Assembly: GCA_043803945.1 (NCBI GenBank)
Contig: JAZDJN010000087.1
Span: forward strand, 160,001 to 224,000
Length of the DNA stretch: 64,000 nt
Direction: 5' to 3'
From: a bacterium
GTDB taxonomy: Bacteria > Bacteroidota > Ignavibacteria > UBA10030
Part shown: piece by piece, positions 21,887 through 53,500 of the stretch
Numbering within the stretch: the stretch's first letter is position 1
How the letters are laid out: each line of letters opens with the position of its first letter
The notes under the pieces: model-generated
The model's database searches: none
Seen by the model: the letters and a program-made list of their open reading frames with translations, nothing else
What the model was told of the DNA's origin: nothing
Position numbers and translations under genes: made by a program

Positions 21887-21901
21887 AGGAACCTCATTGG
21901 A

Positions 21902-25023: not shown

Positions 25024-25833
25024 ATGGCAAGTAGCGATAAAAAAATAATTGTGTTTTTAGAAACGCATCCTTTATTTACCATTGAAGAATTGCGAGAATA
25101 TTTTTCACTTCCTAGTGGAAGCCGGGAAGCTTCCGATATTCTTCTACACAATAAACGGATGGGACGAATAGGTGTCGTAAAGACTGGGTTGTATTATGTC
25201 GTTCGTCCTGGAAGCACGGACATTTCAACACAAGTCGATCCATTTCTTTTAGCGGCTAAATTAGCAATTGATGCGGTGTTGTCTTTTCACACGGCATTGA
25301 ATCTATTAGGATTCGGTCATAGTATGTTCAACTCCTATTATTACTATTCCCATCGTTTCCGTCCGGCCATACGATTTCGAAACGATCATTTCCGTTGTGT
25401 TCTCCTGCCAGAAACAATGCAAAAGAAGTCATCGGCAATGCTTGGCACGGAAAAACTTGAGCGGTCCGGTGTCAAGGTTGTTGTAACCGGAAAAGAACGA
25501 ACGCTTGTCGATGTGCTTGAGCGACCGCAGTATTGCGGCGGTTTTGAGGAGATGTTCCGCTCTCTTGAAAAAATGCCTTATGTCCAAACGGAACTCATTC
25601 TGAAATATTTGAATTTGCGTGGACAGAAAAATCTCTTCGCACGCGTTGGCTTCTTTCTCGAACAGCATCGCGAACAGTTTCACATCGAAGAATCATTTTT
25701 GCAAACACTTGAGCGCCATAAGCCAGCACAGCCTCTGTATTGGGATCGCTCTCGGAAAGGTGGAGTAATCAAGAACCGTTGGAATCTTATCGTTCCGGAA
25801 GCAGTCGACCAGCGTAAGTGGGAGGAGTTTTAA
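25024..25833 (+). CDS. Type IV TA antitoxin, AbiEi family
   Basis: N-terminal wHTH (FTIEEL...KTGLYY), SFHTAL, TGKERTLVDVLERPQYCGG, RVGFFLE, RWNLIVP. Confidence 0.88.
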   Translation: MASSDKKIIVFLETHPLFTIEELREYFSLPSGSREASDILLHNKRMGRIGVVKTGLYYVVRPGSTDISTQVDPFLLAAKLAIDAVLSFHTALNLLGFGHSMFNSYYYYSHRFRPAIRFRNDHFRCVLLPETMQKKSSAMLGTEKLERSGVKVVVTGKERTLVDVLERPQYCGGFEEMFRSLEKMPYVQTELILKYLNLRGQKNLFARVGFFLEQHREQFHIEESFLQTLERHKPAQPLYWDRSRKGGVIKNRWNLIVPEAVDQRKWEEF

Positions 25834-26794
25834 TGTTTTCAAAGGAATACCTCACTAAGCTTGCCGAACAAACGGGTTTTCGTGTTGATAGCTTGCAGAA
25901 GCAGATGACCTTGCTCGACCTTCTTCGAGAGATCTATCGCCATCCGCTTCTTAAAAAGCAATTTGCACTGAAGGGCGGAAGCGCCATTAACCTGTTTTGG
26001 TTTCAGTTGCCCCGCTTGTCTGTCGATATCGATTTGAATTACATCGGCAGCGAAGACCGCGAGACGATGGTAAAGGACCGTCTGAAATTAGAACAAGAGA
26101 TGAAGAAACTTATTGAGTCCAGAGGCATATCAGTAAGGAATGCTCCGGCAGAACATGTTGCGCAAAGTGGCGATTACAGGCACCGAGCGCTTTTGGCGGG
26201 ACATTCAGTCTTGAAATCGATCTCAATTTTATTATGAGAATTCCGGTGTGGGGTGTCGAATCCAAATCTCCGTTTCCCCTGGATGAAGATTATCTCTTTG
26301 AATGCAATATGTTATCATTTGAAGAACTATTCGGAGGAAAAATCAAGGCATTGATGGATCGCTCTACAGCGAGAGACCTCTATGATGTCTACAAGTTGTC
26401 TCAAGTGCGCGACTCGTTTGATATGTCAAAACTAAGGAAAAACTTAATTCTTTTCGGAATCACCTGTGATGATGATTGGAGAAAGAAGGATTTACGCACG
26501 GTAGATGGTATCGATCAGAAAATGGTCGACGAACAACTATCACCATTGCTACGCTCCACTGATTCCGTCGATTTAAAATCAATGAAGAAAACCGTAAAAG
26601 ACTTTCTTGCTGAATTAATAAAATATAGCAAAGATGATAAGCGTTTTATTAACAGATTTTTAGATGACGGCATTTACGAATCCTCACTATTATTCACTGA
26701 TAAGAAACAGGCAAAACTTCTTGAGAAACATCCAGCCGTTCTCTGGAAATTGCAGAATCACCGTCAGTATTTAGGACTTGATAAAAAACCCTAG
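25833..26794 (+). pseudogene. AbiEii nucleotidyltransferase toxin, split by a single frameshift near 26160
   Basis: LKGGSAIN and PRLSVDIDL in the first part. The second frame reads AKWRLQ...LEIDLNFIMRIP, then GKIKALMDRSTARDLYD. Confidence 0.85.
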
Positions 26795-26799
26795 TCATT

Positions 26800-27172
26800 A
26801 TGAAACAAACCAGGATTACGCTCTCACAACTCGAAGGCTTTCTAGCCAAAGCGGCCGATTTGCTCTACGGCAAAATAGATGCATCTGATTATAAAGAATA
26901 CATTTTCGGAATGCTGTTCCTCAAACGTTTGTCGGATGTATTCGATGAGAAACGTGATCAATTACGCAAGCAAGATTACAAGCATCTCAATACGGGTAAG
27001 CCGGAAGACGAACAACTTCTTGCAGATATTCTTGAGGATAAACAAAGCTATGGTGTGATTTTTTTTCGTTCCAAAACGAGCGCGATGGAACGAGGGCTTT
27101 AAGGATGAAAATGGTGACCTGCAGCCGCCAATCTGTAATCTAAACGAAAATATCGGAGAAATGCTCAAGTAA
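26800..27172 (+). pseudogene. hsdM: Type I R-M methyltransferase HsdM, N-terminal stub
   Basis: ITLSQLE...[27 protein letters not shown]. Frameshift in a T8 run (27059-27066), then FFVPKRARW...NIGEML*. No catalytic domain. Confidence 0.85.
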
Positions 27173-29051: not shown

Positions 29052-29139
29052 ACAAATATCAGCACATCAACTGTGGACACCATGACCAATTACCATGTCG
29101 TGACCCCATGCTAAGCCATCTCTCCACAGCATGGAAAGA

Positions 29140-29171
29140 GCTTCAATCCACGCTCCCACGTGGAGTACAAC
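29140..29171. repeat. Single degenerate type I-C-like CRISPR repeat
   Basis: 32-bp GCTTCAATCCACGCTCCCACGTGGAGTACAAC; reverse complement GTTGTACTCCACGTGGGAGCGTGGATTGAAGC resembles the I-C consensus ending GCGTGGATTGAAAC. Confidence 0.65.
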
Positions 29172-29179: not shown

Positions 29180-29757
29180 CGGTTCATCCCCGCACGCACG
29201 GGGAACACTAACATCTACAAAATCGAACTTTTAGTGCGGACGGTTCATCCCCGCACGCACGGGGAACACTATCATTTCCATAATCAATTGCCGTTGGAAC
29301 ACGGTTCATCCCCGCACGCACGGGGAACACAGTAGAACGCTTGCGCTCTGAAATAAGGAAGGCGGTTCATCCCCGCACGCACGGGGAACACGCATAGATG
29401 GAAATGACCATCAATATATTCTTCGGTTCATCCCCGCACGCACGGGGAACACCATGCGAATTTCTCAGAGACGGTTTCATAGGACGGTTCATCCCCGCAC
29501 GCACGGGGAACACTACTATCGTCACCGTCGCTCCGGTGAGCTTGTCGGTTCATCCCCGCACGCACGGGGAACACAATATCCCAGGGGATAGGCACGCCTT
29601 TCCAAACGGTTCATCCCCGCACGCACGGGGAACACAATGAATTGGTATTCATGCCCCGAGTGACTATCGGTTCATCCCCGCACGCACGGGGAACACGAAA
29701 TCGAAAATCTCGACCTATCTGATGATCCCGGTTCATCCCCGCACGCACGGGGAACAC
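29180..29757 (-). CRISPR. Type I-E CRISPR array: 10 identical 29-bp repeats, 9 spacers of 32 bp
   Basis: Repeat GTGTTCCCCGTGCGTGCGGGGATGAACCG (minus strand) at plus-strand starts 29180, 29241, 29302, 29363, 29424, 29485, 29546, 29607, 29668, 29729; 61-bp period. Confidence 0.99.
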
Positions 29758-29825: not shown

Positions 29826-30927
<1,102 letters not shown>

Positions 30928-30954: not shown

Positions 30955-31022
30955 TTACTTGATACGCCTAACCATCATCAGTCCGCAACCGAAGCCTTTG
31001 GCAGGGCCGATGCTGAAATCAT
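30955..31022 (-). pseudogene. cas6e: Relic of a second cas6e (C-terminal Gly-loop only)
   Basis: IGPAKGFGCGLMMVRRIK* immediately after the cas5 stop, the canonical cas6e position. Confidence 0.7.
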
Positions 31023-31027
31023 GTATC

Positions 31028-31708
31028 CTAACGATTCTCGGATGCTTGCCACGTTCGCACTCTTCTTGGCGAAAATAATCTCCGCTCCGTGGCGAAGGAT
31101 ACCGGTGTATCAGGAATAGAATCGCGCCCCTCGGCAAAGTCTTCGACCTCCTCTTGCCGAGTGAAAGATTCAAGCGGCTTTTCTCCAATGAGGAGGCGAA
31201 GCGCATCGTCCCGATTGTCCTTCAAACCGGCAAGAACCGGCGCCGACGGAATACAGGTCTTGCGTCCCAACCAAATCCCCCATTTTGGCTCAGCAAGACC
31301 AGCGGCAATTCCACTCAACAACATTGACTCTCCTTTCAGGAGTACGCCGAAGGCTGCGTCCGTTAAGTACTGGCGATGAGTTAAGACGCAATCATTGTTG
31401 ATCGTACCGCTCGCACGTCTTGTATTCTGAACGGTATGATAATCCTGCAACCGTTTAACCGGAAGTTCTTTTTCCCTTACGTATCGAGGTATGGCAATCG
31501 CAGTCATCTGCACTTTTTGAAACAATGCAAGAAAATTCTGCTCCTGTTCGCTTCCACGCGGATAGCCAAGCGCAGCACAGCATATGCCCGCGATGGCGCT
31601 CTTCGTCGGCATCAGGCCCGTATTGCGGCGGTTGTATTGGCTGTCGAACCCCCAGGATTGAAGAGGACCCTCTAGACGAAGAGCCAGAAATTTGTTATCA
31701 GATGACAT
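31028..31708 (-). CDS. cas5e: Type I-E Cas5 (CasD)
   Basis: LRLEGPLQSWG, PTKSAIAG, LQDYHTV, RQYLTDA, WLGRKTCIPS. Confidence 0.96.
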   Translation of the reverse strand: MSSDNKFLALRLEGPLQSWGFDSQYNRRNTGLMPTKSAIAGICCAALGYPRGSEQEQNFLALFQKVQMTAIAIPRYVREKELPVKRLQDYHTVQNTRRASGTINNDCVLTHRQYLTDAAFGVLLKGESMLLSGIAAGLAEPKWGIWLGRKTCIPSAPVLAGLKDNRDDALRLLIGEKPLESFTRQEEVEDFAEGRDSIPDTPVSFATERRLFSPRRVRTWQASENR

Positions 31709-32993
31709 GGGCCACCATCCCGTCGATGAGGTCATTCAAAGAAACAACTTCTAGTCCATCAACAGTCTTGGCGTCAGTTGTGTTCGGTTCAGGTTTCTTG
31801 TTCAGATGCTCGCTCAAAGACTTTCTGATTGTCGCCTTCGCAGTTCCTTCAATACCCCAAGTTTCTTTCAGGTCCGCATACTCAGCGTTCAGCCGTCTTA
31901 TCGCTTCTACTGCATGGCCTTGACTCGACCTGATTGGGCTCTCAAAGGCATTCACCAGTTGAACGGGATGCCCTTTTTCTCGGACAACCCCAAGTACATA
32001 ATCGGGAATCGTACTGCCGTTCATAGTGTTCTTGCGTGCTGCGGGAATGGCCTTGATCGTTGCCTCCAAGAAAGTGTGCACGACACCTTGTCGCTCTTCC
32101 TTCGTCATACTTTTAAGGTGATCTTTGTCAGCAAGCATGTCGAGGTTGAGAGCAGCAAATCGGTAATATGTTGCGGAATTGAATTCCAGCGTACTCGTCA
32201 TTCCGGCGCCAGATTCTTCCTTGGGCTGCAGATCATCCACAGCGGCAAAGAAATCGATTTCATTGTCGACTTTATGTGTGGATAACGCGTGAGAGAACAT
32301 TGAAGCCGCCTCGACAGTCAAAGAGTGATCGTTGGCAACCATGCGTCCGAACAGAGCAATGTCGGCGGCATCCTTAGGAAGGCTTTTTGCCTCCTTCTTT
32401 TCGCCTTTGAATGCTTTTTGCACAGGTAACTTAAGGATCTTGGCTACAAGTTTGCTAAAAGCTTTAGCAGACAGTTTCTCCTCGCCCCGTTTGGGTTTTT
32501 CAACCTCCTCCTCTGCCTCATCCTCGCCGTCTTCCTCATTTGACAACTTTGCCGTGTCGACCGACTGGATTGCATCCATCAACTTCTGCTTGTCACTTTT
32601 TGGCAGGGAGTGAAGGAGGTTAGCGAAAATCTCGTATTCTAGAGGTGAGAGAAAAACGAGAGTCTTAACTTTCCCAACCTGCTTTGGATCGAGTTTGGCC
32701 AGATAATGTCCAGCACAGAGAGAAAGAGCATTCGCGGTTTCTTCGGCCTCGCCGAGTTCTCTGAGCGCTGAAGAAATCCTCTCTATGAACAGACGGCTTC
32801 GCTTTCCTTTGAATTGGCCCGACGTGTCCAGTTCTTTTTCAGCCAACTCTCGAATCGCTCTCTTCCACGATTGGCTCGAAACCCGAGCCCGCTGAACACC
32901 GCCAAAGATTGCTGTCTTGGGAGAATTAAGATCGTCTCGATTGAGGCATGCGACGGGAACGGATTGAATGATATGCAATTCCAAATGTCTCAT
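31698..32993 (-). CDS. cas7e: Type I-E Cas7 (Cse4/CasC)
   Basis: LHIIQSVPVACLNRDD..PKTA.FGG..RARVSSQSWKRAIR; DIALFGRMVA; DFFAAVDD; SATYYRFA. Confidence 0.97.
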   Translation of the reverse strand: MRHLELHIIQSVPVACLNRDDLNSPKTAIFGGVQRARVSSQSWKRAIRELAEKELDTSGQFKGKRSRLFIERISSALRELGEAEETANALSLCAGHYLAKLDPKQVGKVKTLVFLSPLEYEIFANLLHSLPKSDKQKLMDAIQSVDTAKLSNEEDGEDEAEEEVEKPKRGEEKLSAKAFSKLVAKILKLPVQKAFKGEKKEAKSLPKDAADIALFGRMVANDHSLTVEAASMFSHALSTHKVDNEIDFFAAVDDLQPKEESGAGMTSTLEFNSATYYRFAALNLDMLADKDHLKSMTKEERQGVVHTFLEATIKAIPAARKNTMNGSTIPDYVLGVVREKGHPVQLVNAFESPIRSSQGHAVEAIRRLNAEYADLKETWGIEGTAKATIRKSLSEHLNKKPEPNTTDAKTVDGLEVVSLNDLIDGMVAHVI

Positions 32994-33004
32994 GGGAAAT
33001 CTCC

Positions 33005-33721
33005 TTATGGATTAGTGTTGTTTTCTTTCAAATCAATTGGTGCAAGCAACAGCAGACCGAAACCAAATCCCTTAGCGCTGCCGATGCCGCATTGATATGA
33101 TTCGATGAACTTCTCGTGGTCGGTCACTTCCAGCATCCCCCGAAACTGCACACCGCCATGGTATGCGGCATCCACTTTGCGGCGAAAATGGTTTTCCACC
33201 ATTGGGCTGATTTCGAGAGGCCTTTCTTCCACGATTCGAAATCCGCCGGGTGCATCCACTCCTGCTTTTTCATCTCGACATCGGATTTTTCCTTTCCGAA
33301 CAAGCCATGCTCGCAGTTCTTCAGGCTTGACAAGCGGTACGCGTTTCCCCTTCGTTCGCTTTCGATTTTGTCGGAGCAATATTGCTCCGTCTGGGCCTCG
33401 TTGGTCAATACATTTGGTGGGGTTGGCTCGCAAGTCAAAAGCATAGTACCTATGATTGAGAAACGAAGCAGAGATCTCTTTGAGATCGAAGCCTTCAGCG
33501 GGACACCATTTCGGACGTACGGGCCTTCTCTTGGACAAGATCCAAAGTCGAAAAGCCCCTTCAAGAACATCGATTCGGGTAAGAAAACCAATCTCCTTAC
33601 GCTTCTGATCTGGCACGTCGGGAAAACACTCCCAGAGTTTCTTGTGCCAAGCGTAGCTGTCTGAAATGCGTTCAGCTCGAGCGGTTTCTCTATCAACTTC
33701 TAAACGGGCAAGCCAGTTCAT
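33005..33721 (-). CDS. cas6e: Type I-E Cas6e (Cse3/CasE)
   Basis: YAWHKKLW, FDLRANPTK, V.F.G.L.V.D, GIGSAKGFGFGLL; GAGGA RBS before ATG 33721. Confidence 0.95.
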   Translation of the reverse strand: MNWLARLEVDRETARAERISDSYAWHKKLWECFPDVPDQKRKEIGFLTRIDVLEGAFRLWILSKRRPVRPKWCPAEGFDLKEISASFLNHRYYAFDLRANPTKCIDQRGPDGAILLRQNRKRTKGKRVPLVKPEELRAWLVRKGKIRCRDEKAGVDAPGGFRIVEERPLEISPMVENHFRRKVDAAYHGGVQFRGMLEVTDHEKFIESYQCGIGSAKGFGFGLLLLAPIDLKENNTNP

Positions 33722-34209
33722 GTTTCCTCCTCGGTCGTAGAGGCAGGCACAGTACCTGGTGCCCAGAAAGCGGCTGCCCATTTGGTTTTAATCCGGTCGT
33801 TCCAAAACTTGAGATCAATCTGCAGTTGTTCATAGTTGACTGGAACATCTTGTGATTTTGCCATAAGAACCATCCGCATTACGCGGGAGTGCAACTCTTC
33901 TCTTTCCGCCGCCATCAAATGCTGAAACCTACGTTCCGTTGGGGTCAACTTGTTGTCATCGCCTGTTTTTTCACCTCGCCTTAGTTCAATTGCTTTACAG
34001 GTTGTACCAAAGTTTCCTATGGACGTTTCTTCAGGATGGGTAGCGAAGAGTCCGGCGATGAATGTTAGAACTTCATCGTTGATTGGCACCCCGAGTCGGT
34101 TTAGTGCCGGCCACGCACGGTGTTTCTTGTTGTCCACAAGTATGCAGCGAAGGTTGGCCCTGATCCCTCGATCATCTTTATGTTTGCGGAGTTCGTGAAA
34201 CCAGCTCAT
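33718..34209 (-). CDS. cse2: Type I-E small subunit Cse2 (Cas11/CasB)
   Basis: DRGIRANLR, ERRFQHL, VNYEQLQIDL..W...WA..FW; position after cse1. Confidence 0.92.
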   Translation of the reverse strand: MSWFHELRKHKDDRGIRANLRCILVDNKKHRAWPALNRLGVPINDEVLTFIAGLFATHPEETSIGNFGTTCKAIELRRGEKTGDDNKLTPTERRFQHLMAAEREELHSRVMRMVLMAKSQDVPVNYEQLQIDLKFWNDRIKTKWAAAFWAPGTVPASTTEEET

Positions 34210-35858
34210 ACGTTGTCCTCCTTTAATTGGTTTTTATCAGATTCGCGTTCTTCACGCGTTGATGTCAACTTCTGCCACCCTTTAGCAAAGGCGCGCATCT
34301 GTCGCGGTGTCTCTTGTCCACAGGCGATCTTGTAAGCCTCCTTGGCGGCAAAGAAAAGCATTCTTCGCCAGGCATCCCGCGTTGGGATTGCGGTATCGGT
34401 TCCGATGGCTTCTATGTGAGTCATAAGAAAGGGTAATTGTTTCTCGACGGTGGTCCAGTATGAAAGGAAGGCAGCTTCAGCTAATCTGTCTCTTAGGGCA
34501 CTTTGCTCTTTTGCTTTCGTTCTCTTGATGCGAGGTTTCCAATCCGCGTCGATCGTCTGGCGATAATCTTCTATTGCCCATCTTAGTTTTCTGGAAAAAC
34601 CCTCTGCACCTATTATCTTCTCCGCCCTATCACCCTGAATCTCTGTCTGATATGTGGACAAATGGTTTTGGAATACCGGGCTGATGTGGAAGACGGATTC
34701 GAGTGCGATGTCCATTGAAGCTTTATCGCGAGTCATAGCACAGACATGAAAATCGAATTCAGAATCAGAAGGGGCATTCGACATTGCCAATGGTCCGCCA
34801 AGACCATAGGCTGAACGAATTACGAGTAGTGAAGACAATTCACGCCATAACGCTTTCTTTGGATCGACTCTGAACACCCTCCGCTCACTCGTTTCTCTGC
34901 CATTCTTATCTTTGCTCGTGACCACACGAACAGCGGCAGTCGGTTCCGCAGCAAACCCATTCTTGAATGTGTCATATTTGAAGCCATTGCAGCAATACAT
35001 TTGGTCTGTCCCATGAACAAGGCGAATCCAACGCGATATCGGTACTAGCCTCCCAAGGTATGTGCTTGTTGCGTTTACCGCTTCATCGGACTGCTTGTCC
35101 GGTGAGTCAGGAAAGAACTCCCATACTGGTCGACCTAATTCCACATTCGTGTAAGTGTCACCCTTTTTCTTGTCAGTAGTGAATATTCGATAGGTGTTTT
35201 GAACTGTTTCAAATGTTGGAATATTCAAGTGAATAGTCTCCAACAACGACATTCCACGAAAAAGGCAGTGCGCCATCGATTGTGACAAGCAAGGAGCATC
35301 TGGGTTTCCGACTTGTGAGGTTTTTACGGTTTTCCATTGAGCGATGGGTGAACCACCACCGGAGGAGAAATTTTGAAAAGTCAGCAGGTTCAATGCAATT
35401 CGCTCGGGTTCGAGATTGCGTGAAGCCCTTTGTCCGCCGTGATCGTTGAGAGTTGAATTGTGCCCGGTTGCTAACTCAAAATCAAGAAGGGCTACCGGAG
35501 ATGTTTTCCCAGAATCACTACGGTTCCTTCTCACACCTTTCAAATCTGCCACCTGCAACCAGGGCTTCTTCTTGTGAAACAACTCAAACGAGTCCTTCCA
35601 ATCCGTCAGATACTTCCGTACTTCTTTAGGCAAGTTTATCGGCACTTCGCGCCACTCGTTGTAATCTTTCGGGCCGTCAAGCGCCGCGTGAGCAACACAG
35701 AGAAAGAGGCGCATCAAGGAAACCCGCTCGTGTGGCCGTACCGCCAAGTCGGCGTATCGGGATCCATTCGACAGAACTTCCAAGAGGCTGACACCGCCTA
35801 GAATCCTATGTCCGTTGAGATTAACAACGGGTATCCACGGGTCAAATGCTATGTTCAT
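34206..35858 (-). CDS. cse1: Type I-E large subunit Cse1 (Cas8e/CasA)
   Basis: DPWIPV, RLFL, FELFH..KPWLQ, G.SLLETI.LN, ALWREL; position after cas3. Confidence 0.92.
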   Translation of the reverse strand: MNIAFDPWIPVVNLNGHRILGGVSLLEVLSNGSRYADLAVRPHERVSLMRLFLCVAHAALDGPKDYNEWREVPINLPKEVRKYLTDWKDSFELFHKKKPWLQVADLKGVRRNRSDSGKTSPVALLDFELATGHNSTLNDHGGQRASRNLEPERIALNLLTFQNFSSGGGSPIAQWKTVKTSQVGNPDAPCLSQSMAHCLFRGMSLLETIHLNIPTFETVQNTYRIFTTDKKKGDTYTNVELGRPVWEFFPDSPDKQSDEAVNATSTYLGRLVPISRWIRLVHGTDQMYCCNGFKYDTFKNGFAAEPTAAVRVVTSKDKNGRETSERRVFRVDPKKALWRELSSLLVIRSAYGLGGPLAMSNAPSDSEFDFHVCAMTRDKASMDIALESVFHISPVFQNHLSTYQTEIQGDRAEKIIGAEGFSRKLRWAIEDYRQTIDADWKPRIKRTKAKEQSALRDRLAEAAFLSYWTTVEKQLPFLMTHIEAIGTDTAIPTRDAWRRMLFFAAKEAYKIACGQETPRQMRAFAKGWQKLTSTREERESDKNQLKEDNV

Positions 35859-38431
35859 TCATCCTCCTTATCACCTGTTTTTTCGATAACCACACCTAAC
35901 TGAATGTCCCAGCGCAGAACAACGCCTTTCTTCAAATCCCTCACTGCAATAGCTCCATCGCCCTGAACAAGACCAACGCACTGGCGACCGCGCAAGTATC
36001 GTGCAATTAAAGGATTCCCCTCAGTCCTTTCAAAATGGTAATCCGGTATCTTCACGAGATTGCGGTGTATTCCCTGCGCCGTTGTCAGTTGAAATTCCTC
36101 GCCTCCAAGCGTACAACTTGTTTTATCAATAAATTTGACCTTGGTTTCTGATAATGAGCGGCACAAGACCAAAGAGAGGTGAGGTAGTTCGTTGATACGG
36201 GTCTGCACACCTTCCTCATCCTCAAGAGCAACCTGCCATAGGTTGCTACTCATGAGAGCTTTTCCTTTCAGTGCCAATGCTTTGCCATACGTATCGTTCA
36301 GAAGCTGATGCCAACCGCTTGGTTCTTTCCTGCGTTCCTTGTAGGTTGCTTCGATTAGCTTCCTGATGTCGAAGGGGATGCTTACCTTCTTACGCTTTTT
36401 CCACTGCTCAAGTGATCGTAATAGTACATACGGATCATAGACAAACGCTTTCTTGCCGAGTGCCCTTACAATGTCCTTCTTTTTCAACTTCCGAAACTCC
36501 TGGATGTTTTTCTCTTCCTCGAGAATGCACGTTCGGGGTTTCGAAAGAGGCCTGTTCTCCCGATCATGACGCCATAGCCGACCCATGCGCTGGAACAACA
36601 TATCGGTGGGAGCTAATTCTGTAATAAGGAAATCCGCATCAAGATCTACACTCTGCTCAACAATCTGGGTTGAAATGAGAAGTGAGCCACAGCGCGTAGG
36701 GCTGTCTTTCTCCAACCGATCCATCCATTCTTTTTCCAATTGTTCCCGACGCCAGAACGGGAACCGGGAGTGCAGCAGGCCGATAGGAAAATCCACGTTG
36801 TTCTGACTGCCGAAGTAACGATAGACTCGTTGAGCAGCATCTACCGTATCGCAAACCCACAGAACACACCCTCCCTTTAGTGCCACCTTGATCGCTTCAG
36901 CTATTGCATCTCTTTCGGATTTAAAAACGATTTCAACGTTTCGTGAATCCGGCGGGGTTACAGCAACCGGCTTAGCGATTTTTTCTTGCCGTCGCCCCGT
37001 GATGAGCGGATACGGTTCTCGAGCTCGAGTGTTGACGTTGTCTTCATGAATTGAAATTATCTGCCCGCGCCTTTTTCGTGATAGTGTAGCTGAGAGCACA
37101 ATGACTGTGCAACCAAGCCCCTCAAGTGTCTCAATCAAACGATCGATTAATGTGCCGGTATAGAGATCGTAAGAATGGATTTCGTCGAGGATTACCACCT
37201 TGCCGGCGAGGGCAAAATGGCGCACAAAAAAGTGTTTTGCAGCCACAATGCCCAGCAGAGCCTGGTCAATCGTACCGACCCCAAATGGTGCGATGAGTGC
37301 TCGCTTTGCTGAAGAGAACCAATCTCGTCCGATCTCAGCATTTTCCTCTACCCCCTGTGCTGTTGACGCGGGAGATAGAGCAAGTTTCTGATCCAGAAGC
37401 CACGAATTGCCATGAATGATCTTGCTTCCCACGGCGTCTGGTGCAATACGTTTGACAAATTCCGCCATCCGAAGATGCATTCGGTTGCTGGTAGCTTGAG
37501 TCGGTAATGCGAAATAAATGCCATGTGCTTTTCCGACTGTAAGAAGGTTGTAAGCCGAGCCCAACGCTGCTTCCGTTTTGCCCATCCCCATAGGCGCCTC
37601 AATAACATAAACACCGCGGTCAGTAATTGTGGAGAGAGCTGCTGATTGCATCTTGTTAGGGGCGAATTGAATATACGGTTTTTGTGGATCGTGAAAGAGG
37701 TCGTGGAATGAAAGGCCGCGAACAATTTGTGGGCGAACGCAACCGATTCCATCAAGACATCTGCCGGCTGCTTCGACAGCCTTGGGAGGCTCCATTCCCC
37801 CTTCAACGGGGAAGTAACGCTCATCGGATCCGATCCAATCGGCGACAGAGGTTAATCCTGCGAGCCACCAAAGCGCGGGGGACACATCATCGATCAGAAG
37901 CCCTTTCAAGTCTACCTCGAACTGCGATAGTATATAATCAGCAGCCTTGTTCCGTTCCTTATCCCACTCTATCCCGCTTCGCTGTTCTGTAATTGCTTTC
38001 CGTGGCGTGAATTCCCTGTCATTCGGTGGGCTAAGTCTTCCGTGATGGCCACCCAGCACAGCAGAGAGAAATTTACTGGTTCTCTGATCCACCCCATTGT
38101 TGTTAAAAAACTTCTGCACTGCAGAATGGGTTACCTTTCCATGGTCGGATTCCATCGCAGTATCCCAAACACTATTTCGAGCAATCTCCAAAAGTCTTCT
38201 TTCTTCAAGCCACGCCTCACACTTACGTTGGAACCCAGGAGATATCTTGCCCAAATCATGAAGCGCTGCGAGTGCACCAACCAATGATTGCTTAAGTTGA
38301 AAAAGGTTTAACAATTCCGGGACATCCCTCACCATCGAACGAGCAACACACCCAACATTCATCATGTGTTCAACAACGGAGATTCCCGGTCGAAAATCTT
38401 TCGTGGTTTTGGCCCAGAAGTCAACCATCAT
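35855..38431 (-). CDS. cas3: CRISPR-associated helicase/HD nuclease Cas3
   Basis: WAKT, LHDLGK, HHG, ADWIGS, APMGMGKT, LPTQAT, DEIH, SAT, LHSRF, TQIVEQSVD, QRMGRLWRH. Confidence 0.98.
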   Translation of the reverse strand: MMVDFWAKTTKDFRPGISVVEHMMNVGCVARSMVRDVPELLNLFQLKQSLVGALAALHDLGKISPGFQRKCEAWLEERRLLEIARNSVWDTAMESDHGKVTHSAVQKFFNNNGVDQRTSKFLSAVLGGHHGRLSPPNDREFTPRKAITEQRSGIEWDKERNKAADYILSQFEVDLKGLLIDDVSPALWWLAGLTSVADWIGSDERYFPVEGGMEPPKAVEAAGRCLDGIGCVRPQIVRGLSFHDLFHDPQKPYIQFAPNKMQSAALSTITDRGVYVIEAPMGMGKTEAALGSAYNLLTVGKAHGIYFALPTQATSNRMHLRMAEFVKRIAPDAVGSKIIHGNSWLLDQKLALSPASTAQGVEENAEIGRDWFSSAKRALIAPFGVGTIDQALLGIVAAKHFFVRHFALAGKVVILDEIHSYDLYTGTLIDRLIETLEGLGCTVIVLSATLSRKRRGQIISIHEDNVNTRAREPYPLITGRRQEKIAKPVAVTPPDSRNVEIVFKSERDAIAEAIKVALKGGCVLWVCDTVDAAQRVYRYFGSQNNVDFPIGLLHSRFPFWRREQLEKEWMDRLEKDSPTRCGSLLISTQIVEQSVDLDADFLITELAPTDMLFQRMGRLWRHDRENRPLSKPRTCILEEEKNIQEFRKLKKKDIVRALGKKAFVYDPYVLLRSLEQWKKRKKVSIPFDIRKLIEATYKERRKEPSGWHQLLNDTYGKALALKGKALMSSNLWQVALEDEEGVQTRINELPHLSLVLCRSLSETKVKFIDKTSCTLGGEEFQLTTAQGIHRNLVKIPDYHFERTEGNPLIARYLRGRQCVGLVQGDGAIAVRDLKKGVVLRWDIQLGVVIEKTGDKEDE

Positions 38432-38451
38432 TCAAGCCTTCTTCGTCATTT

Positions 38452-39225
38452 TCAAAACAACCTCTTCTCCATCACTCCCAGCCTCAGATCCTCAATCCGA
38501 ATTATTGCAGCAGAGCGGCTCACGCCGAACCGCTTCATCAGCGCAACAGTAAGCTCCCCCTGACTAGCACCCTCGTACTCATGCTCGATCCGCTTGCAGT
38601 CCTCCATCGGCAGCAGCAGCTCGGCGGCAAAGAAATTTGCTTTGATCTCCTTGAACTTCTCTTTCTGCTCCCGCCGCAATTCGATAAGCAACTGTTCGTT
38701 CTCTTTATTATTGATTTCTGCAAGCTCCGGTTCATCCGCTCCGAAGATATCGCGCTTCGTGCATCTTGCCGATACGACCTGTCGCGACTGCGCTGTTTCT
38801 TCCTCCTGGAAAAGGGGAATCGTGTTGTTGTTTTCATACTTGAGATGAACTGGTTTATAGTAGTCGTTGATAAAATGTCCAAGCTCGTGGGCGAGCGAGA
38901 ATTTCCGCCTCTCCTCAGGATCTGTCTCTTCGATGAAGATAATACCTCCACCGTGGTACGCGTAAAGAAAGCCGGCCAACGCGGAGTAGCGGTCGAGAAC
39001 CTCCTCCTCAAAGGGGAGTTGGAGCCGCTTCAACGTAGCGGTGACCTTATCTATCTCAAGGCCCTCGATCCGCTGGATCGCGATCTGAAATGTTCCACCT
39101 ATCATCGTGCAGAGAGAGCTGAACGTAATGGGATAGCTGGCCAGATTCTCCCCGGTTATCCTCGCGTGTTCCAGGAACCAGATCACTACGTCTCGCGTGA
39201 TTAGATGGCGTTGCTCGTGCTTCAT
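38452..39225 (-). CDS. ImmA/IrrE family metallo-endopeptidase (DUF955)
   Basis: ERRKFSLAHELGH (HExxH); EIKANFFAAELLLP; C-terminal RFGVSRSAAIIR HTH. Confidence 0.92.
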   Translation of the reverse strand: MKHEQRHLITRDVVIWFLEHARITGENLASYPITFSSLCTMIGGTFQIAIQRIEGLEIDKVTATLKRLQLPFEEEVLDRYSALAGFLYAYHGGGIIFIEETDPEERRKFSLAHELGHFINDYYKPVHLKYENNNTIPLFQEEETAQSRQVVSARCTKRDIFGADEPELAEINNKENEQLLIELRREQKEKFKEIKANFFAAELLLPMEDCKRIEHEYEGASQGELTVALMKRFGVSRSAAIIRIEDLRLGVMEKRLF

Positions 39226-39749
39226 TTGTGCTTCTTTCTACGCAAGTGCGTGTCTGGATGTAATTCCTTGGGCCGTGCCGCAAACCGAATCGATCCCGAT
39301 TTATCTTGAGGGTGCTGTAGCTCCCAAAAGCGCAATCCATTCAGCAACCATTCAGCTAGCAGTTTAGAAGTTTCGTCCGGCAACCTATATTCACTACAGA
39401 TAAATCCCGCTACTCCGCGCACCGTGCTGGTGGACAGAGGCATCATCTCGGTAAGTAGGTGTTGCATTACCGCTCCCGAGACTCCAGCTCTGTGCGCTGC
39501 ATCTGTTTCACTCCATCCATTTGCCTCGAGTGTTTTGCCCATCGCTTCGCCAACTGAGCAGGGTGCTTTATCAACATCGCTGGATTGCACAACCCCGTAA
39601 GGGATTGATTGCTCCTTAACCGCTGTTGTACTTTCACTCGCTATCGGTTTATTGGTTTTGCATATTTCCCGTAGAGCTTCCAAAAACTTTTCGTCATTCT
39701 CATCTGCTGCTTGAAAGAAGTTTTCTATCAAGGGGTTTTTCGGCTTCAT
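39222..39749 (-). CDS. Hypothetical protein with degenerate XRE-like HTH
   Basis: GWSETDAAHRAGVSGAVMQHL resembles an HTH; C-terminal IRFAAR; ATGA overlaps on both sides. Confidence 0.6.
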   Translation of the reverse strand: MKPKNPLIENFFQAADENDEKFLEALREICKTNKPIASESTTAVKEQSIPYGVVQSSDVDKAPCSVGEAMGKTLEANGWSETDAAHRAGVSGAVMQHLLTEMMPLSTSTVRGVAGFICSEYRLPDETSKLLAEWLLNGLRFWELQHPQDKSGSIRFAARPKELHPDTHLRRKKHK

Positions 39750-40294
39750 TGTTGTTTTTCCCATTTAGCTTTCAATTTATTGCATGCACGTCTGAGCCGC
39801 TTCATCAGATTTCGGCATTCTTTAATAGAAAGACCAAGTTGTTGCGCTGTTTCCCGATAGATATGTTTTGAATTTGTCTTCTGTAGAATTGAGATAAGGA
39901 CTTCCAGCGTTGTGGCCAGGTCATCAGGCAGGTGCTTCTGAAGAAATCCAGTTAAGAGATCGGCTTCGTGTGTAGGTTGACTTTCTTCCAACACTGGATG
40001 GTCGTCTGGATTCTCATCGGCAGAGAAGTATTCATGTTTAAACTTTTTCTTCTTTCGGCCACGATCCGGCAGCATGTTGTGTTGCAGTAACCACCATGCC
40101 CACTGAACTTCTGATATGTGCTTTGATTCGTCAAAGGTTTGCATTGCCTTCAACCAGGCGTCATTAATAAGATCATGGGATTCGTCTTCCGAAATGCCGC
40201 GACTAAAAAGAAATTTGACCATCCGTTTATATTGATTCGGATATTCAGCTTCCACGATCGAAAATACTGCAGATTGTGTTTTAAGTTTAGTCAT
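39746..40294 (-). CDS. Sigma-70/ECF-like protein
   Basis: SHDLINDAWLKAMQTFD (region 2-like); YRETAQQLGLSIKECRNLMKRLRR (region 4 HTH). Confidence 0.75.
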   Translation of the reverse strand: MTKLKTQSAVFSIVEAEYPNQYKRMVKFLFSRGISEDESHDLINDAWLKAMQTFDESKHISEVQWAWWLLQHNMLPDRGRKKKKFKHEYFSADENPDDHPVLEESQPTHEADLLTGFLQKHLPDDLATTLEVLISILQKTNSKHIYRETAQQLGLSIKECRNLMKRLRRACNKLKAKWEKQQ

Positions 40295-40931
40295 GACCTT
40301 TATCTAAATATATGCAGTCACCCCCCCAATTTGCCATTATCCTTCAGCCGGGCAGCGAGATAAAATAGCAGCCGGGATTGTCCCAAAGGTGCGAATGACC
40401 TGACCAATTCGATAGTGTGCAGAATGTGGTAGGTAAGATTATGTTTTTCACCCCGGTCATTTTCCGAATGCGCAAAGAACATAGAAAACCCTCCCTCAGT
40501 AGTTAGAGTTATATGTATCCATCCTTCGTGTGCTAATTTTTATCATTGATGTAATAACCAGCGATCGCAATGGATGCGTTCAAGTCGGCACTGTGCGCTG
40601 GTTATACAGTGGTGTGATGGGATAATGTTATCCTTTTCAGACTTCAATAGCAATGCAAGGATTCCTATGATAAAGGTTTCCTTCTCCCCCGATCTCACTT
40701 GGATGAAGGAAACCTTTTACTCATGCCCTCGTGCTCTCTCCACGCAATGTATACCCAATCCTGTTCATCCTGTCTATCGATGTTCTCACCCCCTCACTCT
40801 TTCTCCCCCTCTCCCCCTCGTACACTCACACCCTCTTACCCTCTATCTACTCCCCTCATTGCCCTCTTCTTCAATTTTCTGTATCTTCTTATTATTACTA
40901 TTGGCCGAACATCAATAATTGGATATTCCGT

Positions 40932-42323
40932 ATGACACCTGAACAACTCTGGAGCGGACGTTTTAAGGAATTGCTCTCTGCCACCGCTTTGAATTTCTCT
41001 TCCTCCATCGATCTCGATAAAAAACTCTACCATGAAGATATCGCCGGCAGTATTGCGCATGTCGAAATGCTTGCGGCAACACATATCCTTTCCGCTACCG
41101 AAGCAAGAAAGATCCGCACAGCACTGAAGCAGATTCAGAAAGATATCGAACTCGGGAAATTCAAGCTGACCAGTGAGTATGAAGATGTGCACAGCGCCAT
41201 CGAGCTGAAGCTGATCCAAAAAATTGGACCGCTGGGCGGCAAGCTTCATACCGGACGCAGCCGCAACGATCAAATCGCCCTCGATGAGCGATTGTACCTC
41301 CGTTCGGCCATCAAAGATATCTGCCGGCTTCTTGTGCAGCTCCAGAGGGTCCTTCTGTTCAAATCGGAAAAATATTTTGGCGTATTGATGCCTGGATATA
41401 CGCATCTCCAGCGTGCACAGCCGATCCTTCTTTCACATCACTTGCTGGCTTATCTGTGGATGCTTGAGCGCGACTATGAACGTCTGCAAGATTGTCAGAA
41501 GCGTTTGAATAAGTCTCCCCTTGGCGCAGCCGCATTGGCAGGAACCTCGTTTCCGATCGATCGTGCAAGGGTCGCCAAGAAATTAAATTTTGCCGGTATC
41601 GTCGAAAACAGTATCGATGCCGTGAGTGATCGTGATTATCTTATCGAGTTTGTCGCCGCATGCTGCATCTTGCTAACACACCTGAGCCGGTTTGCTGAAG
41701 AACTGGTCTTGTGGACATCCAAGGAGTTTGGATATGCTCATATGAGCGATGCTTACACGACAGGCAGCAGTATCATGCCGCAAAAAAAGAATCCCGACAT
41801 GGCCGAGCTTGTCCGGGGAAAGACAGGCCGGGTCTATGGCGCCCTTGTCAACCTTCTTACCCTTATGAAGGGATTGCCGCTGGCCTATAACCGGGATATG
41901 CAAGAAGATAAATTTCCAATGTTTGAAACGGTGAGCACAACGCGTCACTGCCTGGCAATCTTCGCACAGATCCTCGTTCATACAACGTTTAACAAGAGAA
42001 AAATGGAGGAGGAGCTACAAAATGATTTCCTCACGGCAACCGATCTCGCTGATTATTTGGCAAGAAAAGGAATCCCGTTCCGTGAAGCATACGCGATCAC
42101 CGGAAAAATTGTCTCCTACTGTATCGAGCGCCGGATGTACTTCGGCAATCTCGATCTCGAAGCGCTGCGGATATTCTCCCCTGCTTTTGGACCGGATGTC
42201 TTCGAAGTGCTCCTCCCACACAACAGCGTGGAGCAGAAAAAATCAGCAGGAAGCACATCACCGCAGGAAGTAAAGAAGCAGATTATTCATTGGATTCGGG
42301 TGCTTAAAGGACGGAAGGGATAA
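40932..42323 (+). CDS. argH: Argininosuccinate lyase
   Basis: LWSGRF, HTGRSRNDQ, MPGYTHLQRAQP, GSSIMPQKKNPD, YNRDMQEDK. Confidence 0.98.
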   Translation: MTPEQLWSGRFKELLSATALNFSSSIDLDKKLYHEDIAGSIAHVEMLAATHILSATEARKIRTALKQIQKDIELGKFKLTSEYEDVHSAIELKLIQKIGPLGGKLHTGRSRNDQIALDERLYLRSAIKDICRLLVQLQRVLLFKSEKYFGVLMPGYTHLQRAQPILLSHHLLAYLWMLERDYERLQDCQKRLNKSPLGAAALAGTSFPIDRARVAKKLNFAGIVENSIDAVSDRDYLIEFVAACCILLTHLSRFAEELVLWTSKEFGYAHMSDAYTTGSSIMPQKKNPDMAELVRGKTGRVYGALVNLLTLMKGLPLAYNRDMQEDKFPMFETVSTTRHCLAIFAQILVHTTFNKRKMEEELQNDFLTATDLADYLARKGIPFREAYAITGKIVSYCIERRMYFGNLDLEALRIFSPAFGPDVFEVLLPHNSVEQKKSAGSTSPQEVKKQIIHWIRVLKGRKG

Positions 42324-50365: not shown

Positions 50366-53300
50366 TCACAACGACACTTCAAGAAGATTCGACTCAACTC
50401 TCTTAAACAAATCGTCGAGTGATTCTTGAATCTTGATTGTCTCTGCGATTGCGGTAACGACATTTGCGTATGTTGTTATCTCCTCGGATGAGAGCATCCT
50501 GCCCTTGCGGTCTTTCAGCCACTTCTCAGCAACCTGATAACCTCCGATGTGATACTCCCATACTTCGGATGGTACGCCCGCAAAATACTTTTCAGGATTG
50601 ATGTAGACACGATGCTTCTTTTCATCGTAGGACACCTTAACGACTCGCAAGTCGCCAGAGCCCTCACACTTGGCAATCGGTTTATTAAGTTTCTTGGATT
50701 TGAGCAAGTGCAACTCAACGAGTTGCTCACCTTTGTCAGCGAGTTTCTGGAAGAGCTTGTAATCCTTTGTAAATGGAACGCGAGGGAACTCGGACTTCAA
50801 GAGTCCACCATATTTTTTGCGATAAGCGTTCGAGTAAAGGACTCCATAGATGTAGTTGAAGATGTCTTCAGGGATTGGCTGATTTTTGTACGCCAGTTTA
50901 AGAGATTCTTTGAGTTTCGGTGCAAAATTGGTGACGCGGTATTTTGCACCGTACGGAACCTCCGGTTCAAAAAGCATCATTGTCAAACCACTACTTCGTT
51001 TCTTCTTAGTCGTGTCTTGATATAAATACAGAGGAAAGAAATAGGAACGTTCCTTTGTCTCAGGTGATACAACACAGTCATTAATAATAAATTCAGAACA
51101 TAGAACATGTTGGAAAGTCTTGTTCACAAACCGGTTTGTTATTAAACCAACATTTTTCCTTTCAACAAAATTCGACATCACTTCTCTTCTTCCACGCTCT
51201 ATCATTGCGTCATGATAGAATAGATGTCGGACATCAAAAGGACGGTATAGAATTTTTTCAAAGTATTGGTCTATCTCTCCTTCGTCAGAAAGTGTTTTGC
51301 GCGCTTCCTTGCTTTTCCATGCTCCAGTATCATTGAGCTTGAACGCCTTACCGAGTAGATCATCATCAAACGAGCTTGTTATAAATTGCCGGATGCGGTT
51401 CTTCAAACTTTTTTCATCAAAATCAATTACAAAATGATCCCTCGCCGTAACAATTCCTACACTATTCACCGGAAATATGGCAGGTATACTTGGATATGAT
51501 TGAAATCGTTTGGTTAACCTCTCATCTCTCGGGACAAAAAAGTAAAAGGGTGAAATCGGTTTGAGTTCAGTCCATTTGACTTTCTTGAGATCAAGCTTCA
51601 ACAATTGTTCATATTTCTTCTCTCTTAATCCCCAAAGCTCGCTATGCCTCACAGCCTTTTGCTTTACCTTTTTTTGTTTAACAAATAAAGCTATTGCAAC
51701 ACCTTGCTGTATATCAAAAACATTTTCGTCTTTTGAACCGTCTGGTGCTTTCTCTTTCTTGAGTGAATTGCCGTGAAGGTCAAGTATGTAGATTTCATCA
51801 AACGAAGTCATTAACGATTGACGCATACCCCGAAATGTGGGGTTATCAAGGTAACTGTGGTTTGTGATGAAGCCGAGAACACCCTCGCCAACCTGATCGA
51901 TCTTCCACTGCGCAAACCTAATGAACTTGACATAGTCATCTTGGAGCCACTTTGGATTCTTCTCTCCGAGAGGCTTCCCGTCAATTGTTTTGTAATTCTC
52001 AATCTGTTGTGTAATCCAATCGCCCTTGTTCGTTGACTGACCTGAATAAGGAGGATTTCCGAGGATAACAAGAACCGGTTTATCCCTCTTAACTTTGCCT
52101 GCAAGGTGCGATTCCTCGGAGAGGGAAGCCATCCCGGGAAGTGATGTTTGGGTAAGCTCCTCCATTTCGAGTGTATTGGTGAGATAGAATTGGAAACGCT
52201 CGTCACCGGAGAGCTTATACCCAAGTTCCTCCAAGAGATATCCCATCTTTAGATGGCCCGCTGCATACGGAGCCATCATAAGCTCAAAGGCAAAGAAATG
52301 TGGCAAAATGTGGTCTTCAATGAATTTCGCTTTTGCGCCTTCACCATACTTGGCGACAAACTCTTGCACGGCGAGTTTAACAGCCTCGGCAATAAAGGTG
52401 AGTGTACCGCCAGCAGGATCGAGAACGGTCACCGAATGAGAAGCAAAACCATCTTTTCGTCCGAATAGTTCCTTAAGAATGATGTTGAGCGAGCGAACGA
52501 TATAGGAGACGCCGGGCTCAGGCGTATAGTAAACGCCTCGACGCTCACGTTCTTGCGGATTGTAATCCGAAAGAAAGGTCTCGTAGAAGTGGAAAATGGG
52601 ATCGGTTCCTTTGCCTTCCTTAAAGTACTGATGAAGAATGTTCTTGACATCAGCAACGGCGAGGACTTCGGCAATATCGTCGACGGTGGCTTGCAGTTGA
52701 TCGGGTGGGTCGAAGGAAATGAAATGAAAAATATCTCTGAGAATGCCAATAGTCTTTGGAATAAGATCGTAAGCAAGTTTACGATTGAATGCTCCATTCG
52801 CCCGGGTTCTCGCAGCAAAGAGACCGTAAGTTATTGTTTGCGCGTAGAGGTCGGCGAATTCATCGGGCTTCAGGTTTGGAATAAGATGTTTTTGGAATGC
52901 CTCATAGAAACCAAGAATCTTCCTCCCGCCTGCACCGGAAGCCTCTCGAAGTTCCTCTTTGATGATCTGATCTCTAAGGAAGCGAGTCCGTGTAGCAAGC
53001 TCTTTGGCAAGACTTTCGGCGGTAAACTTTGGCGGTAGAGAAAACTGAAAGAACTTTTCCAGCAATGCAAAGAATTCTGCGGTGTGCTCAACCGGTGGAA
53101 TTGTTTTGAGCTTTATCGGAATGTATGGCCGGGCAAGAAGAACATTATCTACACGCTGTCCGTTGCGGTAAAGACGGAACTCATAAAAGTTTGTAAGAAT
53201 GAGATTAGGGAACGTTTTTATGTAACGCTTAAGTTGCTCTGAGGTTTCAATGTCATCAAGGTTTGTGTTCGGCGCTTTTGCTTCAACATAGCCAACTTGA

Positions 53301-53500
53301 GAATGTTTGCCATCCCAAACTCGGAAATCGGGATTACCAGCCTCGGTCTTCTTCGGAAGGACGGTGACGTGAACTTTCTTGTGCCTCTCGGTTTCCGAAA
53401 ACTGTTCAAGGAGCTCGGCAAGGGCAGAATAGTAGGATTCCTCACGGGCATCGCCACGTTTGGTGCTGGATGCTATTTTGTTGATGTATGTCTCGATCAT
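50366..53500 (-). CDS. Type IIG (LlaBIII/ISP-like C-terminus) restriction-modification enzyme
   Basis: N-terminal PD..VEAK nuclease; GVYYTP, VLDPAGGT, GNPPY, TFRGMR; C-terminal TRD with FPRVP and WEYHIGGYQV..KWLKDRK. Confidence 0.9.
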   Translation of the reverse strand: MIETYINKIASSTKRGDAREESYYSALAELLEQFSETERHKKVHVTVLPKKTEAGNPDFRVWDGKHSQVGYVEAKAPNTNLDDIETSEQLKRYIKTFPNLILTNFYEFRLYRNGQRVDNVLLARPYIPIKLKTIPPVEHTAEFFALLEKFFQFSLPPKFTAESLAKELATRTRFLRDQIIKEELREASGAGGRKILGFYEAFQKHLIPNLKPDEFADLYAQTITYGLFAARTRANGAFNRKLAYDLIPKTIGILRDIFHFISFDPPDQLQATVDDIAEVLAVADVKNILHQYFKEGKGTDPIFHFYETFLSDYNPQERERRGVYYTPEPGVSYIVRSLNIILKELFGRKDGFASHSVTVLDPAGGTLTFIAEAVKLAVQEFVAKYGEGAKAKFIEDHILPHFFAFELMMAPYAAGHLKMGYLLEELGYKLSGDERFQFYLTNTLEMEELTQTSLPGMASLSEESHLAGKVKRDKPVLVILGNPPYSGQSTNKGDWITQQIENYKTIDGKPLGEKNPKWLQDDYVKFIRFAQWKIDQVGEGVLGFITNHSYLDNPTFRGMRQSLMTSFDEIYILDLHGNSLKKEKAPDGSKDENVFDIQQGVAIALFVKQKKVKQKAVRHSELWGLREKKYEQLLKLDLKKVKWTELKPISPFYFFVPRDERLTKRFQSYPSIPAIFPVNSVGIVTARDHFVIDFDEKSLKNRIRQFITSSFDDDLLGKAFKLNDTGAWKSKEARKTLSDEGEIDQYFEKILYRPFDVRHLFYHDAMIERGRREVMSNFVERKNVGLITNRFVNKTFQHVLCSEFIINDCVVSPETKERSYFFPLYLYQDTTKKKRSSGLTMMLFEPEVPYGAKYRVTNFAPKLKESLKLAYKNQPIPEDIFNYIYGVLYSNAYRKKYGGLLKSEFPRVPFTKDYKLFQKLADKGEQLVELHLLKSKKLNKPIAKCEGSGDLRVVKVSYDEKKHRVYINPEKYFAGVPSEVWEYHIGGYQVAEKWLKDRKGRMLSSEEITTYANVVTAIAETIKIQESLDDLFKRVESNLLEVSL

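Follow-up and report, generated by a model that had tools for sequence, protein, structure and literature searches.

A possible protease/anti-sigma/ECF-sigma switch at the head of a type I-E CRISPR interference operon

Introduction

What are three small genes doing at the head of a type I-E CRISPR interference operon? In the 64,000-nucleotide stretch of Ignavibacteria DNA analysed here (the window), a sigma-like gene, a gene of obscure kind and a gene for an M78 peptidase follow one another on the minus strand and run straight towards cas3. A first-pass annotation had proposed that the peptidase cleaves the middle protein, a repressor or an anti-sigma, and thereby releases sigma-driven cas transcription. 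Here we examine what each of the three proteins may be, where else such triads occur and whether the cas genes are likely to be under their control.

Results

Three overlapping genes lead into cas3

The three open reading frames, all full length, lie at 40294-39746 (182 aa), 39749-39222 (175 aa) and 39225-38452 (257 aa) on the minus strand. Their junctions are -4 and -4, both ATGA overlaps, followed by 20 bp to the cas3 ATG at 38431, exactly the coupling and same-strand gap first described. The spacer to cas3 (38432..38451, minus strand) holds no terminator-like hairpin (fold z +0.63; no terminator site). A five-codon mini-ORF lies inside it (38432-38449, minus strand), with its stop abutting the cas3 ATG, and may be a translation relay or chance. 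At the other end, just past argH, a strong hairpin (40672..40717, minus strand; z -4.2, equalled in 0 of 200 shuffles) is a putative terminator that likely ends argH transcription ahead of the triad. The intergenic region between the two (40295..40670, minus strand) is the expected home of the triad promoter, and promoter searches there gave nothing above chance. Rfam returned no match in the sequence examined. That the three genes form one module, as had been supposed, is borne out by comparison: 17 other loci have the three genes in this order, in most cases overlapping or abutting, and the arrangement is therefore not chance.

A complete interference set in a patched locus

Downstream lies a complete type I-E interference set, cas3-cas8e-cas11-cas6e-cas7-cas5, together with an array, which places the system in type I-E. 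The first gene, cas3 (35855..38431, minus strand), encodes an HD nuclease and helicase (TIGR01587 and TIGR01596 above cut-off; Cas3e 1.6e-160). It is followed on the same strand by a tightly coupled block (31028..35858) made up of cas8e (34206-35858), cas11 (33718-34209), cas6e (33005-33721), cas7 (31698-32993) and cas5 (31028-31708), each above its NCBIfam cut-off. The CRISPR array (29180..29757, minus strand) consists of 10 identical 29-nt repeats and nine 32-nt spacers, and it has no extended match elsewhere in the window.

The rest of the locus is less orderly. There is no cas1 gene here: the adaptation pair cas1/cas2 has been deleted save for half of cas2, left as an 85-aa remnant (29826..30083, minus strand) that keeps only the C-terminal half (residues 23-64 correspond to model positions 45-87) and whose first 26 residues may be the start of cas1. 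The first-pass annotation had passed over this reduction. Right after cas5, the sequence of a second Cas6e-like C-terminus with a glycine-rich loop (30955-31026, minus strand) suggests that another cas6 was deleted and that the locus is a mosaic. A Bro-N gene split over two frames (30086-30927, minus strand; PF02498; PADLOC PDC-S13 1.7e-87) sits between cas5 and the cas2 remnant. Past the last I-E repeat, at about 29139-29170 on the minus strand, lies a sequence that we take to resemble a type I-C repeat; it had no counterpart in Rfam and is perhaps a relic of an earlier array.

Further defence genes are scattered over the window. On the plus strand, AbiEi with AbiEii split into two ORFs and then a 100-aa fragment of a type I methyltransferase (25024-27102) are decayed defence genes. 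Likely defence genes are an HNH-type nuclease (16376-17314, plus strand) and a large restriction-modification-like methyltransferase (50366-53500, minus strand), both read from sequence only, as well as a HicA toxin gene (PF07927; 42359-42879, minus strand). An argC-J-B-R-G run occupies the plus strand at 19620-24713, with argH 16 kb on and on the minus strand (40731-42323; names read from translations), and this split of the arg genes around defence genes makes an inversion possible.

The peptidase is CapP-like and lacks a GAF domain

The third gene of the triad (38452..39225, minus strand) encodes a zinc peptidase of the M78 (ImmA/IrrE/CapP-like) family, 257 aa long, with the HExxH motif at 38875-38889. 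It belongs to PF06114 (2.5e-17, 63.3 bits against a cut-off of 22), and the capP model of PADLOC matches it at 6e-18. The HELGH and E..AN.FAA motifs noticed at first reading are indeed kept, as H113-E114-L-G-H117 and E193-I-K-A-N-F-F-A-A, and H113, E114, H117 and E193 are invariant in 18 of 18 sequences. A structure model built from 109 sequences reached a pLDDT of 82.5 (an 18-sequence version, with pLDDT 51, was unusable); its top match in a fold search was CapP 7t5t (E 5.6e-5), and IrrE was also matched.

Only 64 residues follow the third ligand, compared with 139-161 in the ten GAF-type triad proteases scored, and the GAF domain is absent: the model stops after the HTH helices, and the match to CapP ends at CapP residue 178 of 291. 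In the covered parts of the literature, ssDNA is bound by CapP and IrrE in the groove between peptidase and GAF domain (PMC13228613, PMC12828697, PMC8072749), whereas no ssDNA binding is seen for IrrE without its GAF domain and no stimulation by ssDNA for ImmA (PMC12828697, PMC8072749). The DNA-damage or ssDNA trigger suggested by the first-pass annotation is therefore doubtful for the window protease, which, like the unresponsive ImmA, has no GAF domain. Another kind of switch may be present. A 75-residue insertion between HExxH and the Glu ligand holds C155-x3-D159, a C-x3-D arrangement found in 18 of 18 close homologs and in 3 of 90 distant ones; C155 is placed on a predicted strand (151-155), where pLDDT is only about 50-60. 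CapP has been described as carrying a cysteine switch (C114, D117/D118), with the loop in a third of CapP proteins (PMC13228613, in part), and by analogy the C155/D159 insertion recalls that device and may serve as a switch.

A sigma-like protein and its modelled partner

The first gene (39746..40294, minus strand) encodes an ECF-type, sigma-70-like factor of 182 aa with sigma2 and sigma4 regions, to judge from profile alignment to RpoE and from Atlas features. The match to TIGR02937 (6e-7) is below cut-off, as is every sigma family score of the window protein when set against the curated cut-offs. Its family profile aligns with RpoE over residues 21-172, covering both regions (E 0.0024), its Atlas features match sigma-70 clusters at 0.97, and one of its 14 close homologs (48-65%), P0033, carries PF04542. 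Profile-profile comparison of the window sigma family with the sigmas of six triads described below gave a weak match (probability 20%, E 0.0011), so the two are only distantly related.

The middle protein (39222..39749, minus strand; 175 aa) is a predicted anti-sigma composed of N-terminal helices, an XRE-like core at about 66-120 and a C-terminal tail lying outside the predicted interface. It has no Pfam match, its homologs (three were found) stay below cut-off, and PADLOC's capH does not match it at E values up to 1; by inspection, it has no obvious membrane segment. In structure modelling of the kind advocated in the first-pass annotation, the complex of sigma with middle protein scored 0.81 (runs 0.71, 0.86 and 0.81), while the best of three controls scored 0.00. 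The mark for this score, which is reached by 116 of 157 solved pairs and by 2 of 215 mismatched ones, applies roughly, as our own alignments were used, and the value may stem from resemblance to sigma/anti-sigma complexes of known structure. The runs share at least 90% of contacts, with partner pLDDT of at least 69. Partner residues 2-33, 54-65 and 101-120 are modelled in contact with sigma residues 17-28, 58-71, 107-115, 133-145 and 161-182, such that the partner touches both sigma2 and sigma4, including helix 161-175, with no interface residue beyond 120; contact with both regions is also what has been reported for DdvA (PMC11506125). On this model, the middle protein fits an anti-sigma, and a sigma/anti-sigma pair appears quite probable. 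Of the two roles first offered for it, repressor or anti-sigma, the complex model favours the latter.

DNA binding nevertheless enters the picture through a profile of four sequences that matches HipB-type XRE domains (E 0.003); the XRE-like core, known from this match, could bind DNA. The putative recognition helix (about 79-98) is poorly conserved among the four family members and lies outside the modelled interface, which makes a dual role as sigma clamp and DNA-binding protein possible. Among more distant triads, the partners at three loci (L046, L049 and L055) have no Pfam HTH match and, aligned by eye with ten plasmid partners, no HTH-like block, and are therefore unlikely to be DNA-binding repressors.

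An Ala-Ala-Arg motif follows the sigma gene

In the tail of the middle protein, after residue 120 and outside the modelled interface, residues 156-159 read FAAR, the codons of A157-A158-R159 occupying 39273..39281 on the minus strand. These may mark an AA|R cut site with a cryptic C-terminal degron, conservation being the observed part. AAR is invariant in four of four members of the window family. Of 17 triad partners, 15 carry it in their C-terminal half, as against 1 of 21 partners from sigma-less loci. Kinship inflates these counts, since a single tight branch holds 12 of the 17 triads; the motif nevertheless occurs across both triad branches and the window family. The 21 comprise the separately encoded partners that could be picked among 51 sigma-less loci (the other loci having upstream genes that are fused, missing or unrelated); 19 of them carry a Pfam HTH, and none of these 19 has AAR. 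The residue before AAR varies (F, I, H, A, L, M or Q), so that AAR rather than Phe is the kept feature. Of the FAAR near which a cleavage site had been proposed, the AAR portion is thus the conserved one, and the Phe changes among relatives. Two loci with a sigma gene and a partner gene and no protease gene (L066, 5908-6752; L069, 5860-6841) also have no AAR at the conserved place.

Cleavage at AA|R would produce C-termini such as IRFAA, LTLAA and FMMAA. According to the portions of the reports covered here, CalpT is released through a cut-exposed LAA degron in which the terminal AA is crucial (bioRxiv 10.1101/2024.05.08.593097), and RseA through a cut-exposed VAA degron (as cited in the same preprint). 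Known M78 cuts fall at F82|R83 for CapP (Lau et al., bioRxiv 10.1101/2022.04.27.489752), L106|R107 for IrrE and F95|M96 for the GAF-less ImmA (PMC12828697, PMC8072749, for the latter two; all from partial coverage). By analogy with these cases, the CapP and IrrE cuts both lying in front of Arg, a cut at AA|R leading the middle protein into a degron route is slightly favoured. On the other hand, all P1 residues known are large (F, L, F), and ImmA cleaves between F and M, so a cut at F156|A157, which would give no AA end, is possible. We propose that AAR tracks sigma because a sigma clamp must be destroyed, whereas a repressor need only lose its dimer.

Triads recur beside defence genes

The close family comprises 20 other proteases at 48-81% identity, 14 sigmas and 3 middle proteins, the named close homologs coming from Ignavibacteria; the only hint of linkage among them is equal-sized contigs (21322 for P0006/P0037; 2128 for P0025/P0028). 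The neighbourhood survey covers distant protease loci and plasmid records. A genome scan with a widened protease alignment and generic patterns yielded at least 57 distant loci, a background sample with no close relative among the matches listed. By gene maps, at least six of the 57 hold a full triad, whose first genes match TIGR02937 weakly; a sigma profile revealed no triads beyond these six, which are a minimum since several contigs end close upstream. Plasmid searches with two triad sigmas returned 17 distinct records; 11 of the 14 examined hold the full triad and the remaining three have no protease. No match came from plasmid searches with the window protease, the window sigma, the L006 protease or the L001 sigma, and a phage search gave only one weak partial match.

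By raw neighbour counts, the 17 full triads adjoin CBASS (4), ubiquitin-like/ThiF operons (3), DUF2188 or DUF3892 genes (3), a 411-424-aa gene (3), a retron-Shedu-OLD cluster 2-6 kb downstream (1) or unclear cargo (3). On the question raised at the outset, whether the triad keeps turning up next to cas or other defence genes, the survey thus gives a divided answer: the tie to defence genes is repeated, and the tie to cas is not, as gene maps and annotation place cas directly beside 0 of the 17 other triads. A phmmer search of the 57 loci for cas was insensitive and missed a cas3g found by PADLOC in L006, about 5 kb from the triad on the opposite strand. Nor was a triad present upstream of cas3 in the three examined plasmid loci with the closest cas3 proteins (36-38%). 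Given the varied defence neighbours and a cas link seen once, the triad appears to be a general defence regulator rather than a CRISPR-specific one, and with none of the 17 adjoining cas, the capture of cas may be a single event.

A quick protease tree separates two layouts. Triads of the CBASS/ubiquitin type have GAF-length, CapP-like proteases, and most of them are oriented divergently to the cargo. The window protease falls into one group (SH-aLRT 90) with those of L001, L002 and L006, which are GAF-less and have the long insertion. At these loci, as in the window, the triad heads co-oriented cargo, here at a distance of 16-48 bp. That cargo (L001, 6774-9880; L002, 10635-11870; L006, 10568-13777) is a conserved 411-424-aa protein followed, where the contig allows, by HerA. 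The protein has no match in Pfam, PADLOC or, for the one tested, NCBIfam; with HerA, it makes a candidate unlisted defence system, in which a NurA-like role would be our guess.

A promoter motif marks the divergent triads

In 12 loci of divergent layout (11 full triads and one without protease), a motif TGTCCG-N16/17-GCATA was found. In 11 of these 12 loci it faces the sigma gene, and in 11 it faces the cargo (leave-one-locus-out, p up to 0.05, 200 dinucleotide shuffles), counts inflated by the kinship noted above, and it occurs in three held-out loci (L060, L066 and L072). The two-box shape and the variable spacing of the copies fit putative back-to-back ECF promoters, and for the divergent branch only, the motif supports sigma-driven defence expression.

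The motif was not found in the window, L001, L002, L006 or L046. Within the window, sigma, cas3 and the array had no upstream box in common, as 39 and 36 of 40 shuffles did as well. The GCATA box that lies 15 nt ahead of the sigma start codon was rejected as a promoter element, scoring no better than shuffles. Near cas3 there is a single sigma-70-like site, which ends within the reading frame, and such sites occur at chance frequency (5 found, 4.0 expected). For the sigma-driven cas transcription of the first-pass annotation, a promoter was thus sought in the window and none located. We consider it fairly probable that the cas genes are on the triad's transcript, the case being one of operon geometry only: an insulated start, tight coupling and no terminator.

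Discussion

The explanation that we tentatively prefer, at a little under an even chance, is a protease/anti-sigma/ECF-sigma switch heading the I-E interference operon. In the resting state, as modelled, the middle protein would clamp sigma2 and sigma4 and keep the sigma factor inactive. Upon a signal, the M78 peptidase, possibly gated by its Cys155 switch, would cut the free tail at A158|R159, and the new Ala-Ala C-terminus would act as a ClpXP-type degron, by analogy with CalpT and RseA, so that the anti-sigma is destroyed and the sigma freed. None of the window's listed ORFs was recognised as clpX or clpP, and their presence in the host is assumed. The freed sigma would then fire its own promoter upstream of 40294 and give one transcript through the triad into cas3-cas5, with positive feedback and inducible interference as the outcome. 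A broader reading is more speculative, and we hold it with correspondingly less assurance: M78/anti-sigma/ECF-sigma triads would be widespread, hitherto unrecognised immune switches, in which an AA|R cut unmasks a ClpXP degron and the freed sigma transcribes the adjoining defence operon from a promoter of its own; many sigma-linked 'capH' proteins would be anti-sigmas; and a GAF-less, cysteine-gated version would here have captured I-E Cascade-Cas3, making it inducible by a signal other than ssDNA.

It is somewhat unlikely, to our mind, that the triad is a working switch and yet a mere neighbour of cas, although this is the main rival. The triad would have arrived with other cargo (such as a HerA operon, as seen in its relatives) and been joined later by cas3, with cas driven from a promoter concealed in the protease gene's 3' end. 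Such a history would sit well with the lack of cas at the 17 other triads, with related I-E plasmid loci that have no triad and with the patched, decayed state of the locus (cas1/cas2 deleted, second cas6 tail, split Bro-N, different repeat-like sequence). Nor is the triad linked to cas by codon usage, whose uninformative values (-0.012, +0.074 and -0.019) fall between those of host and cas. On the other hand, the triad genes are full length, the 20-bp same-strand gap without hairpin resembles the cargo gaps of L001, L002 and L006, and sigma-70-like sites near cas3 are at chance level, all of which speaks against such a history.

A distinctly less probable alternative follows the logic of CapH or ImmR, the middle protein being an XRE repressor that sits on the operon promoter until the cut inactivates it, with the sigma as an accessory activator or only loosely involved. 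The XRE profile match, the position of the predicted recognition helix clear of the modelled interface and the PADLOC capH match to the L049 partner (5.9e-6) are all compatible with it, and Lau et al., in the portion covered, class sigma-linked loci as capH+capP. However, the poor conservation of that helix in the four family members, the complex model with sigma and the many triad partners without HTH speak against a repressor, and AAR follows the presence of sigma, not of HTH, being absent from all 19 sigma-less partners with a Pfam HTH. Very improbable, in our estimate, is an abortive-infection or toxin-antitoxin unit independent of cas, in which the freed sigma diverts RNA polymerase and arrests growth. 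Released CalpS does arrest growth of E. coli (bioRxiv 10.1101/2024.05.08.593097, covered in part), and there are weak PADLOC matches to the two-gene candidate PDC-M69 (A 0.038, B 4e-7); yet in 11 of 12 related loci the promoter-like motif is turned towards the neighbouring defence cargo, which suggests specific local activation.

Should the preferred switch prove real, its interest would reach beyond this locus. M78 peptidases are known for cutting repressors, and one that destroys an anti-sigma would merge the logic of CapP/CapH with that of CalpL/CalpT/CalpS, the product being a switch that activates and feeds back positively on itself. The sigma genes that have been noted, without mechanism, at CBASS loci would then have an explanation as well. 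If cas lies on the triad transcript, a dedicated, protease-gated sigma would control a type I-E system. Testing would be inexpensive, as the predictions concern one cut site, one degron mutation and, for the alphaproteobacterial triads, such as those of Bradyrhizobium or Paracoccus, one promoter motif in culturable strains.

The presence of a sigma gene beside the protease pair is not new in itself. A total of 24 CBASS loci with capH, capP and a sigma-70 gene have been counted, the sigma receiving one sentence and no mechanism in the portion covered (Lau et al., bioRxiv 10.1101/2022.04.27.489752), and the distant triads beside CBASS are probably these sigma-linked loci. The part of the earlier novelty claim that stands is the link to type I-E, for which we found no description in the sources covered. 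Among the best-ranked results of a literature search that included few subscription papers, none had an M78 peptidase acting on an anti-sigma or a triad at type I-E, and a word search of the main text and one supplement of an ECF re-classification paper (PMC7826278) found no DUF955, M78, ImmA or IrrE.

Several known systems share parts of this design, as far as the sections of the cited reports covered here describe them. ImmA/ImmR and IrrE/DdrO have the M78 family, an XRE-like partner and a cut near the partner's C-terminus, in the window a predicted one, in common with the window triad, and ImmA is likewise GAF-less; unlike it, they inactivate a dimeric repressor and involve no sigma (PMC12828697, PMC8072749). 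Anti-sigmas bound to sigma2 and sigma4 of their ECF sigma factors are found in RpoE/RseA (as cited in bioRxiv 10.1101/2024.05.08.593097), and in DdvS/DdvA of Myxococcus, where DdvS drives a CBASS and CRISPR island (PMC11506125). RseA and DdvA, however, are membrane anti-sigmas freed by intramembrane proteolysis, while the window protein has no obvious membrane segment and a dedicated M78 protease.

Similar in composition are two CRISPR-linked units of protease, anti-sigma and ECF sigma: CalpL-CalpT-CalpS of type III (bioRxiv 10.1101/2024.05.08.593097) and Csx29-Csx30-CASP-sigma of type III-E, whose CASP-sigma has motifs in its own locus (PMC10028731). There, a SAVED-Lon or CHAT protease responds to the type III effector once the target has been recognised; in the window, the protease is of the M78 family, all cas genes are of type I-E, with neither cOA nor Cas7-11, and the switch would come into play ahead of interference. 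CapH/CapP resembles the triad in its M78 peptidase, the partner gene upstream, the neighbouring defence operon and the possible cysteine switch (Lau et al.; PMC13228613). It differs in that the window triad lacks the GAF domain and is co-oriented with its cargo rather than divergent, that the cargo is a type I-E cas operon and that the partner models as an anti-sigma with an AAR tail. With no GAF domain, no capH match and no divergent layout, the triad is therefore not CapH/CapP as defined, nor is it CalpLTS; it would appear to work like a hybrid of both.
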